In this document: piece by piece, positions 11,576 through 14,383 of the stretch
How positions within the stretch are numbered: the stretch's first letter is position 1
Layout of the letters: each line of letters opens with the position of its first letter
Assembly (NCBI RefSeq): GCF_003334335.1
Contig: NZ_QOWQ01000026.1
Length of the DNA stretch: 64,000 nt
Source: Escherichia coli
Lineage (GTDB): Bacteria; Pseudomonadota; Gammaproteobacteria; Enterobacterales; Enterobacteriaceae
Strand: one strand, 5' to 3'
Notes under the pieces: generated by a model
The model's input: only the letters and a program-made list of their open reading frames with translations
Told to the model about the DNA's origin: nothing
Database searches by the model: none
Program-made: the position numbers and the translations under genes

Positions 11576-13486
11576 TTACCTGGAGGATGGTATCGCAAGG
11601 AAACGAACCGCACGGGCAATGTCACGGGTGCGTGGCGCGGGCGGCAGACTGGCGAGAAACGTCGCGCCGTAAGGACGCATCACCAGCCGATTGTCACAAA
11701 TCACCAGCACGCCACGATCGTCGGCGTCGCGAATCAGTCGCCCTACCCCCTGTTTGAGAGTAATGACGGCATCTGGTAGTTGCACTTCATCGAACGGGTC
11801 GCCACCGCGCAAACGACAATCTTCCATGCGCGCTTTTAACAGTGGATCATCCGGCGAGGTAAACGGCAATTTGTCGATAATTACCAATGACAATGTATCG
11901 CCACGCACGTCCACCCCTTCCCAGAAACTGCTGGTTGCCACAAGAAGCGCATTACCGGCGCTGACAAATTGCTGCAACAGTTGCCCTTTGCTGGTTTCCC
12001 CCTGCAACAATACAGGAAGCGTCATGGTAGCGCGGAACTGCTCGGCCAGATCGCGCATCATGGCGTGCGAGGTACAAAGCATAAAACAACGACCGTTGTT
12101 AGCTTCGATGATCGGTCGCAGCATTGCCGCTAACTGGCGAGCAGAACCTGGCTGGTTGGTTTGCGGCAGATTGCGCGGCACACAGAGTAACGCCTGGCGG
12201 CTGTAATCAAATGGGCTGGGCAACAGCAACGACTCGGCCTGTTCGATGCCAAGCCGCGAGGTGAAATGATGCAGATCGTCGTTCACCGACAGCGTTGCTG
12301 AGGTGAAGATCCAGCTACCGGGTTTTTGCGCCATTAACTCTTTGAATTTATCCGCCACGCTGAGCGGCGTGAGAGCCAGAGTAAAATGGCGCGAAGTGCA
12401 TTCGTACCAGTAGCTGTAGCCCGGCTGATTGATCTCTTTTAGCCGCTTCAGCCGTGTGCGATACAACGTGGCGCGCTCAAATGCCGCATCCAGCAAGGCG
12501 GAACGCCCCAGTGACAGTTTCGCCACGTCATAACAAAGTTCCAGGGTGTCATCGAGCAGTAAAAATGCCCGCTGAATTTGCGGATTAGCTAACAGCTCAC
12601 GCAGGTTACCGCGATAACCTGGCTCACCGAGTTGCAGACGAAAATCCTGCGCACTCTGGGCAAGACGATCAGCGCACTTTTGTAACTGCTGGGTGTCTTT
12701 TAATTCGGTGCGGTAGGCGATGGTGATGTCTTTTGCCAGGTCGAGCAGTTGTCGACTGGAGAGTGACTGACCAAAATACTGGCTGGCAATGTCCGGTAGC
12801 TGGTGGGCTTCGTCGAAGATCATGACGTCCGCTTCCGGGATCAGTTCGCCAAATCCACTCTCTTTAACCACCATATCCGCCAGAAAGAGATGATGGTTTA
12901 CCACCACCACATCGGCGTCCATCGCTTTTTTACGTGCTTTGACCACAAAGCAATCTTTATACATCGGGCAGTCGCTGCCAAGACAGTTGTCGTTGGTGCT
13001 GGTGACCAGCGGCCACGCCTGTGAATCTTCCGCCACGCTGACGCAGGTGCTGATATCACCATCGACTGTTTGATTAGACCAGGAGCGCAGCAGGATCACA
13101 TCGCTTAAGATTTGTACCGGCAGATCGCCCCCCGCCAGCGCCTGCTGTTCGAGACGTTCGAGGCAGAGGTAGTTTGAGCGCCCTTTCAGCAGCGCCACGT
13201 TGCCCGTATATTTCAATGCCTTTGAGACTGTTGGCAAATCGCGGCTGTAGAGCTGATCCTGCAACGCTTTTGAGCCGGTCGAGATAATGACTTTCTTTTT
13301 CGCCCGCAGCGCAGGAGCCAGGTAAGCGTAGGTTTTGCCCGTACCGGTTCCTGCTTCCACCACCAGCGGCTGGCCTTTTTCTATCGCCTGGGTGACGGCT
13401 ACCGCCATCTGTCGCTGTGGTTCTCGCGGCTTAAAGCCTGGTATCGCTTTCGCCAGCTGACCGTCTGGTGCAAAATCGTCCGTCAC
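11576..13486 (-). CDS. yoaA: DinG-family ATP-dependent helicase YoaA
   Basis: ORF track 636 aa; GTG start; Walker A GTGKT and DEAH box. Confidence 0.9.
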   Translation of the reverse strand: MTDDFAPDGQLAKAIPGFKPREPQRQMAVAVTQAIEKGQPLVVEAGTGTGKTYAYLAPALRAKKKVIISTGSKALQDQLYSRDLPTVSKALKYTGNVALLKGRSNYLCLERLEQQALAGGDLPVQILSDVILLRSWSNQTVDGDISTCVSVAEDSQAWPLVTSTNDNCLGSDCPMYKDCFVVKARKKAMDADVVVVNHHLFLADMVVKESGFGELIPEADVMIFDEAHQLPDIASQYFGQSLSSRQLLDLAKDITIAYRTELKDTQQLQKCADRLAQSAQDFRLQLGEPGYRGNLRELLANPQIQRAFLLLDDTLELCYDVAKLSLGRSALLDAAFERATLYRTRLKRLKEINQPGYSYWYECTSRHFTLALTPLSVADKFKELMAQKPGSWIFTSATLSVNDDLHHFTSRLGIEQAESLLLPSPFDYSRQALLCVPRNLPQTNQPGSARQLAAMLRPIIEANNGRCFMLCTSHAMMRDLAEQFRATMTLPVLLQGETSKGQLLQQFVSAGNALLVATSSFWEGVDVRGDTLSLVIIDKLPFTSPDDPLLKARMEDCRLRGGDPFDEVQLPDAVITLKQGVGRLIRDADDRGVLVICDNRLVMRPYGATFLASLPPAPRTRDIARAVRFLAIPSSR

Positions 13487-13494
13487 ACTACCCC

Positions 13495-13510
13495 CTGTTG
13501 ATTTGAACAG
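13495..13510. promoter_or_regulatory. LexA-box-like CTG-N10-CAG element just upstream of yoaA
   Basis: CTGTTGATTTGAACAG, 9 nt from the yoaA GTG start. Confidence 0.35.
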
Positions 13511-13617
13511 GGATTATGTCAGGATGAGGGCGCTTTCGCCAGTTGAAGTGGTGACGGCGACCTCACATTGTGGCAGTCTTTGCAGCACGAAAATGGAAGT
13601 ATAATGAGGACAAAATG

Positions 13618-13962
13618 ATGACTATCGTTCGTATCGATGCTGAAGCCCGCTGGTCTGATGTAGTAATCCACAACAACACGCTCTACTACACTGGTGTACC
13701 GGAAAACCTCGACGCCGATGCCTTTGAGCAAACCGCCAACACGCTGGCACAGATTGACGCCGTGCTGGAAAAACAGGGCAGCAATAAATCGAGCATTCTG
13801 GATGCCACCATTTTCCTGGCCGATAAAAACGACTTCGCGGCGATGAATAAAGCGTGGGATGCCTGGGTTGTCGCGGGTCATGCGCCGGTGCGCTGCACGG
13901 TACAAGCGGGTTTGATGAACCCGAAGTATAAAGTTGAAATTAAGATTGTGGCTGCGGTGTAA
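13618..13962 (+). CDS. yoaB: RidA/YjgF-family protein
   Basis: ORF track 13570..13962 trimmed to ATG at 13618 (114 aa, MTIVRID...); GAGGA SD upstream; tandem ATG at 13615. Confidence 0.85.
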   Translation: MTIVRIDAEARWSDVVIHNNTLYYTGVPENLDADAFEQTANTLAQIDAVLEKQGSNKSSILDATIFLADKNDFAAMNKAWDAWVVAGHAPVRCTVQAGLMNPKYKVEIKIVAAV

Positions 13963-14383
13963 GCTTTATCGAAGCAAAATAAGTCAGACGATAATTTATC
14001 GATAATACTGGTCGGTTTTACATAAATCGACCAGAGAATAAGATATTACTGTTGATGCTTCTGCTAATTCATTATTTATATTTATAATTTCAATTTTATC
14101 TATAAAACTAACTATATAAATAAACATAAACATGCCGTTGTGTTCGCCCTTTGATTAGCAACTCTGGTTTTCTTTCTTAGCTGAACAATCTGGTTATAGC
14201 GTGCGGACTGACCGTTAAATTTCTCCATCTTACTGGATAACACACCATGAGCTGCTACCTTTAAAACACCTGAATGTCAACAGGTTAACTCGTGCCATAT
14301 CGTTATAATCCCTTTGATATTAGATGCAAATTAAGGTCATATATAGCCTTATCGATAACATGGTTAATTTTAAGGATAAGAAT

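Follow-up and report, generated by a model that had tools for sequence, protein, structure and literature searches.

A palindrome in the intergenic region between the divergent genes yoaA and yoaB of Escherichia coli very probably serves the yoaA promoter as its only LexA operator. This operator is real but weak, and it is not new: it was predicted in 2001 and borne out by mutagenesis in 2021. The LexA-yoaA link being already established, the finding brings no new biology. What is added here to the published operator is a conserved extended -10 register, a family-wide footprint, and a weak matrix score.

The window, the whole 64,000-nucleotide stretch of DNA analyzed here, comes from the E. 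coli chromosome: a 501-bp query spanning the site matched many complete E. coli genomes at 100% identity, and yoaA and yoaB are annotated at the matching locus (RefSeq). Positions 13487 to 13617 are exactly the 131-bp divergent yoaA-yoaB intergenic region, with yoaB starting at 13618 on the + strand (RefSeq). Reading of the sequence and pattern searches agreed that CTGTTGATTTGAACAG, at 13495-13510 on the + strand of the window, fits CTG-N10-CAG, as originally predicted, and its core is complete with CTGT-N8-ACAG half-sites. The full 20-mer, CCCTGTTCAAATCAACAGGG, occupies 13493-13512. Relative to the GTG start of yoaA at 13486, the box spans -24 to -9, with 8 bases (13487-13494) between the two. 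The proximal base, at -9, bears out the predicted distance of 9 nt, and the distal base, at -24, agrees with the published "LexA box at position -24" (PMC8378479). The order of elements on the yoaA strand is TGACATAAT-CC-CTGTTCAAATCAACAG-GGGGTAGT-GTG (Table 1). Overlap of the box with the ribosome-binding region, also part of the prediction, was found as well, and CAGGGGG is kept in most of the yoaA orthologs in the 80-locus comparison described below. YoaA is a DinG/XPD-family helicase; among the matches listed, homologs of at least 87% identity carry DEAD and Helicase_C_2 domains.

Table 1. Features of the yoaA-yoaB region in window coordinates
Feature	Coordinates	Strand	Description and basis
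LexA (SOS) box	13495..13510	-	CTGTTCAAATCAACAG on the yoaA strand; pattern searches; same as the box mutated in PMC8378479
Shine-Dalgarno-like AGGGGGT	13490..13496	-	first two bases (AG) are the final two of the LexA box
Predicted yoaA extended -10, TGaCATAAT	13513..13521	-	conserved at 80/80 loci; hexamer CATAAT at 13518..13513
Predicted weak yoaA -35, TGGCGA	13536..13541	-	17 bp upstream of CATAAT; inferred from conservation
yoaA CDS	11576..13486	-	636 aa, GTG start at 13486; ORF list and RefSeq annotation
yoaB -35, GTGACG	13551-13556	+	conserved block; fits the mapped start
yoaB extended -10, TGgCAGTCT	13571-13579	+	conserved block; fits the mapped start

LexA dependence, induction by damage, and derepression upon mutation of the box are all shown in the literature. 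Sutera et al. (2021, J Bacteriol 203:e00228-21; PMC8378479) fused the 132-bp intergenic region to luxCDABE and observed rapid induction by AZT, most of which was lost in lexA3(Ind-). Changing CTG(N)10CAG to CCC(N)10GGG resulted in constitutively high expression with no further induction. The (N)10 of that study, TTCAAATCAA, exactly matches the box in the window, and the mutagenic primer is identical to window positions 13479-13534 except for the designed changes. In a 2024 PNAS RNA-seq study (PMC11228462, Table 1), yoaA is listed as a classical SOS gene with 4.0-fold induction by AZT, 1.6-fold lexA dependence, and a heterology index (HI) of 13, a value for which that paper cites Courcelle et al. 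2001. A 2024 multi-omics study (PMC11002266) found yoaA induction to be rapid, weak, and transient (log2 change of 0.5 to 0.7), and a 2025 review states that YoaA is LexA regulated. No report of direct LexA binding to the yoaA box by EMSA, footprint, or ChIP was found in the literature searched. The lexA3 and box-mutant data (PMC8378479), together with the RNA-seq data (PMC11228462), uphold the original prediction that a LexA box puts yoaA under SOS control. The accompanying claim that the position of the box would block initiation very tightly is at odds with the weakness of the operator (HI of 13, and 7.6 bits on the matrix described below) and with the small size of the induction reported in both 2024 studies.

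As a bare pattern, the yoaA box is no better than chance. CTG-N10-CAG occurs 28 times in the window, compared to 12.0 ± 3.7 expected from dinucleotide shuffles, none of which (0 of 100) reached 28. Abundant CTG and CAG codons, rather than LexA sites, presumably account for this excess; the three other copies examined in the window all lie inside ORFs. The more stringent CTGT-N8-ACAG occurs twice as opposed to 0.67 times expected, and 14 of 100 shuffles reached 2.

The window was also scored with a symmetrised weight matrix trained on 18 E. coli LexA boxes from the literature (PMC3009722, Table 4). The LexA box of yebG ranked first in the window, with 21.9 bits, thus validating the matrix. The yoaA 20-mer scored 7.6 bits and ranked 20th among 63,981 window positions, whereas 8.7 ± 2.8 positions per simulated 64 kb scored at least as high. 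Its heterology index on the 18-box matrix was 15 to 17 versus the published 13, which itself is at the weak end among accepted operators, and neither measure separated the box from background. The same test fails for polB, an accepted weak operator that scores 8.9 bits when left out of the matrix. Since functional operators such as polB fail likewise, separation by the matrix is not decisive for the yoaA box. A low matrix score had been put forward as grounds for refuting the site; the score was indeed low, yet the site is functional according to the published experiments, and such a rule would wrongly reject it. Two CTG-N10-CAG sites that outscored the yoaA box, at 49649 and 41208, are both inside ORFs. 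Among the sites scoring at least as high as the yoaA box, the only CTG-N10-CAG matches outside ORFs were the yoaA and yebG boxes. It is position and conservation that raise the yoaA box above chance, not the pattern alone.

The same matrix gave 12.2 bits for AACTATATAAATAAACATAA, located at 14110-14129 in the long yoaB-yoaC intergenic region. This sequence has neither the CTG nor the CAG and is probably just AT rich.

We evaluated conservation of the box at the best 80 loci of a genome scan for YoaA, which come from different species of Enterobacteriaceae. The set covers Escherichia, Salmonella, Citrobacter, Enterobacter, Klebsiella, Raoultella, Kosakonia, Kluyvera, Atlantibacter, Siccibacter, and other genera, with intermediate Enterobacterales such as Yersinia, Serratia, and Proteus outside the sample. 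In these closest loci, the CTG and the CAG were invariant in 80 of the 80 orthologous yoaA promoters, which contained 23 distinct 20-mers. Position 6 of the box was always G or T and position 15 always A or C, the same alternatives that accepted LexA boxes show. The spacer varied at 8 of its 10 positions and was AT rich throughout. Across the 80 orthologous promoters, the positions contacted by LexA are kept and the spacer is free.

The match in the window could in principle be fortuitous, with the derepression of the published mutant arising from a changed promoter strength rather than from the loss of LexA. The chance-level matrix score and the 28 copies of CTG-N10-CAG agree with such a view. 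Moreover, the mutagenic primer alters 10 bases, some of them directly after the -10 element, and thereby touches both the discriminator and the initially transcribed sequence; for this reason, part of the high expression of the operator mutant could be a promoter effect (PMC8378479). However, lexA3 blocks most of the induction of the wild-type fragment and the mutant is not inducible (PMC8378479), lexA dependence was also seen by RNA-seq (PMC11228462), and six LexA-contact bases invariant at 80 of 80 loci next to a spacer varying at 8 of 10 positions are unlike neutral sequence. We therefore consider a chance match practically negligible as an explanation and the site a LexA operator.

The register of the box relative to the promoter was also conserved. 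All 80 loci contain TGACATAAT; in 78 of them the box begins 2 nt further downstream, and in the remaining 2 the distance is 3 nt; in the E. coli window, it starts 2 nt downstream of TGaCATAAT. The distance between the box and the aligned start codon varied, with the box placed anywhere from -24 to -63, while the -10 register stayed the same. In several genera, the changed distance corresponds to in-frame N-terminal extensions, and a genuine 47-nt gap separates the box from the GTG in Entomohabitans (L081). Because the -10 register is constant while the distance to the start codon varies, the box appears to be anchored to the promoter and its predicted start site rather than to the ribosome-binding site. 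The geometry that matters would then be that of the promoter, instead of the overlap with the ribosome-binding region on which the original prediction had relied. Judged from the alignments, the conservation pattern is what one would expect of a LexA operator held in fixed register with a sigma-70 promoter that has a weak -35 and an extended -10 element.

A functional LexA operator may thus score at chance on a weight matrix. Such an operator is recognizable by two features: a CTG and a CAG that never change on either side of a variable spacer, and a fixed -10 register.

Seven loci, L074, L075, L077, and L079 (Atlantibacter and one "Citrobacter freundii" record) as well as L023, L026, and L027, have GGGGGTAGTGTGACGGAC beside the box. 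After this segment come 5, 6, or 10 codons inserted in frame, then another start-like codon and ACGGACGAT. In these taxa, YoaA may be slightly extended at its N terminus, with the order of box, Shine-Dalgarno sequence, and GTG retained.

The strength of the box differed among genera. Several had better boxes than E. coli, up to a maximum of 17.3 bits in Enterobacter soli; the Enterobacter version is CCCTGTGTAAAAATACAGTG. E. coli shares with part of Citrobacter one of the weakest versions in the 80-locus set, and scores in E. coli, Citrobacter, and Salmonella were 7.6 to 8.9 bits, whereas Enterobacter reached up to 17 bits. Of 5,416 E. coli genomes, 5,275 matched the 48-nt module between the -10 element and the start codon at 99% identity or more.

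More distant relatives were sampled by a representative search, which returned yoaA orthologs of 38 to 56% identity, and four of these (47 to 56% protein identity) were examined upstream. Between -400 and +40, none of the four contained CTG-N10-CAG or a matrix match above 8.1 bits. In three of the four, tsaB was still found downstream of yoaA. Since these four orthologs are without a box, the link between the box and yoaA appears, by this comparison, to be family-wide and not universal.

One of the distant orthologs (L082; 56% identity, GC content of 43%) contains between -50 and -20 the sequence TGGCATAATATTCGCCTGTTTATCAATGAGA, which resembles the enterobacterial module. An extended -10 element is followed there by a CTGT half-site, and the second half-site reads GAG instead of CAG. 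This sequence may be a decayed or diverged operator.

We infer the promoter elements and the start site of yoaA from conservation rather than from a consensus scan. A stringent consensus scan of positions 13300-13800 found no promoter because the yoaA -35 element matches the consensus at only 3 of 6 positions. In 63 distinct upstream sequences, however, the T-G-G of the predicted -35 is 98 to 100% conserved and its fourth base is 90% conserved, with fixed spacing to the -10 element. Two other interpretations of the conserved blocks were dismissed. A sigma-54 promoter built on the conserved TGGC blocks was rejected on spacing by eye, the blocks fitting the yoaA -35 and the yoaB extended -10 elements. 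The sequence at 13574..13566 is accounted for better by the mapped yoaB promoter on the opposite strand than by a second yoaA promoter.

The sole yoaA start recorded by Kim et al. 2012 (PMC3415461) is a distant one at window position 13995 on the - strand, with 12 reads and a 509-nt leader. A proximal yoaA start was not found in the start-site data of Kim et al. 2012 or in the Cappable-seq and ROSE supplements, the latter two of which do not mention yoaA. The part of the Kim et al. 2012 tables that was searched contained no start-site entry for the Klebsiella yoaA ortholog. That only the distant, 12-read start is on record is in keeping with repression of the yoaA promoter in normally growing cells.

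The distant start lies just past the yoaB stop codon at 13962, and its transcript would cross yoaB in antisense. A palindrome, CTGGTCG...CGACCAG, is located just upstream of it.

The operator's palindrome might instead act as RNA, forming a hairpin in the yoaA leader that hides the Shine-Dalgarno sequence and provides translational control in place of, or besides, a DNA operator. When fully transcribed, CCCUGUU and AACAGGG would form a 7-bp stem over the first Gs of the Shine-Dalgarno sequence (MFE of -13.5 kcal/mol, 13512..13460), and transcripts from the low-level start at 13995 would include this stem. The fold is, however, no better than that of shuffled sequences (z = -0.39). Pairing at the CTG/CAG positions and at 1/20 is all that the 23 distinct versions of the box have in common; most of them cannot form pairs 2/19, 7/14, and 8/13, and some combine different half-sites (CTGT...CCAG). 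These failures point to selection on independent protein half-sites and not on a stem. In addition, the predicted start is within the palindrome, RNA folding indicates that the leader from there is unstructured, and the published effects came from transcriptional lux fusions (PMC8378479). On the basis of the pairing counts and the fold statistics, we rejected the hairpin, which is very unlikely, and retained the DNA operator.

The operator lies in an intergenic region of 131 bp shared with yoaB, which appears in one compiled SOS gene list (PMC11002266), and could for these reasons also, or mainly, govern the divergent gene. The yoaB start was mapped at window position 13587 with 448 reads and a 31-nt leader (Kim et al. 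2012, PMC3415461). This start explains the other conserved blocks of the intergenic region (Table 1) and places the yoaB promoter back to back with the yoaA -35 element. A TATAAT at 13601-13606 is downstream of the yoaB start and is probably not a promoter. The box is located 77 to 92 bp upstream of the mapped yoaB start, beyond its -35 element, and the yoaB transcript was not induced (log2 change of 0.03 to -1.0; PMC11002266). Control of yoaB through the box is consequently extremely improbable, and the operator serves yoaA only.

Repression of yoaA is transcriptional and modest, and its steric mechanism can be proposed as follows. A LexA dimer would contact the half-sites CTGT and ACAG. Transcription is predicted to start near 13506, inside the box, which would then cover about -4 to +12. 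Operators are commonly placed in this way, and a repressor bound there can occlude RNA polymerase. LexA on the box would block either open-complex formation by the polymerase or its escape from that complex. RecA, once activated by DNA damage or by AZT-induced replication gaps, would cause LexA to cleave itself, and the operator would empty. The derepressed yoaA mRNA is expected to have a short leader of about 20 nt with the Shine-Dalgarno sequence AGGGGG and the GTG start. The overlap of the box with the ribosome-binding site would follow from the shortness of this leader and would not itself be a means of control. The poor match to consensus in the flanks and the spacer should make repression partial and induction modest.

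A slow second phase of AZT induction survives lexA3, in which expression at 180 min was ~30% of the wild-type level and 6-fold over untreated cells (PMC8378479). That study proposes an alternative way of relieving LexA repression. The late phase, absent from the box mutant, could be explained by a second, LexA-independent factor or process acting through the same site. A weak operator (HI of 13) might also be the first to empty if LexA activity drops. On the other hand, the spacer and flanks vary freely among genera, leaving little conserved sequence for a second specific protein, and there is no known candidate. The box mutant, moreover, is already fully derepressed, and hence its failure to be induced is uninformative. 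We regard a second factor at the site as rather unlikely. A related and equally doubtful proposal concerns LexA occupancy itself: in E. coli, Citrobacter, and Salmonella, the operator may have been kept weak and fused to the start region so that it senses small, cleavage-independent falls in LexA occupancy, for instance upon entry into stationary phase. If true, sensing by a weak operator would explain why late induction survives lexA3 and yet depends on the box, and it would point to relief of LexA repression at weak operators by a route that does not depend on RecA.

The published yoaA operator and the site described here are the same in sequence, position (-24 to -9 from the GTG), gene, and species, and nothing differs between them. 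Among other operators, that of polB (dinA), GACTGTATAAAACCACAGCC, is similar in being functional, single, and poor in consensus, with an HI of 13 for both (PMC11228462). The two are also close in matrix score (8.9 bits leave-one-out for polB and 7.6 bits for yoaA) and in their modest induction (4.7-fold and 4.0-fold, respectively). They differ in that the polB operator has an AT-rich spacer and one good flank, whereas yoaA has GC flanks (CC/GG) and a C and a G in the spacer beside the half-sites. The paralogous helicase gene dinG is likewise repressed by LexA through a single nonconsensus operator, TATTGGCTGTTTATACAGTA. The dinG operator is asymmetric, with TTG instead of CTG in one half-site; yoaA, by contrast, has both the CTGT and ACAG half-sites but poor flanks and a poor spacer, and the two sites are not homologous.

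The YoaA-chi helicase contributes to the removal of blocked 3' ends at stalled replication forks, but too much of it is toxic, and control of yoaA by LexA therefore matters for the balance between repair and replication.

The yebG operator in the same window, located at 51015-51034 on the - strand (TACTGTATAAAATAACAGTT on the yebG strand), resembles that of yoaA as a single box near a start codon. Its CTGT-N8-ACAG core is at 51017-51032, and 17 nt separate the box from the ATG at 50997, within a short leader or promoter region. Unlike the yoaA operator, it is strong: it tops the matrix ranking, has a published HI of 6.3, and confers 9.7-fold lexA dependence compared to 1.6-fold for yoaA (PMC11228462). 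A single base distinguishes the yebG box TACTGTATAAAATAACAGTT from the K-12 version given in PMC3009722, TACTGTATAAAATCACAGTT, so that window and published K-12 sequence are not identical here.
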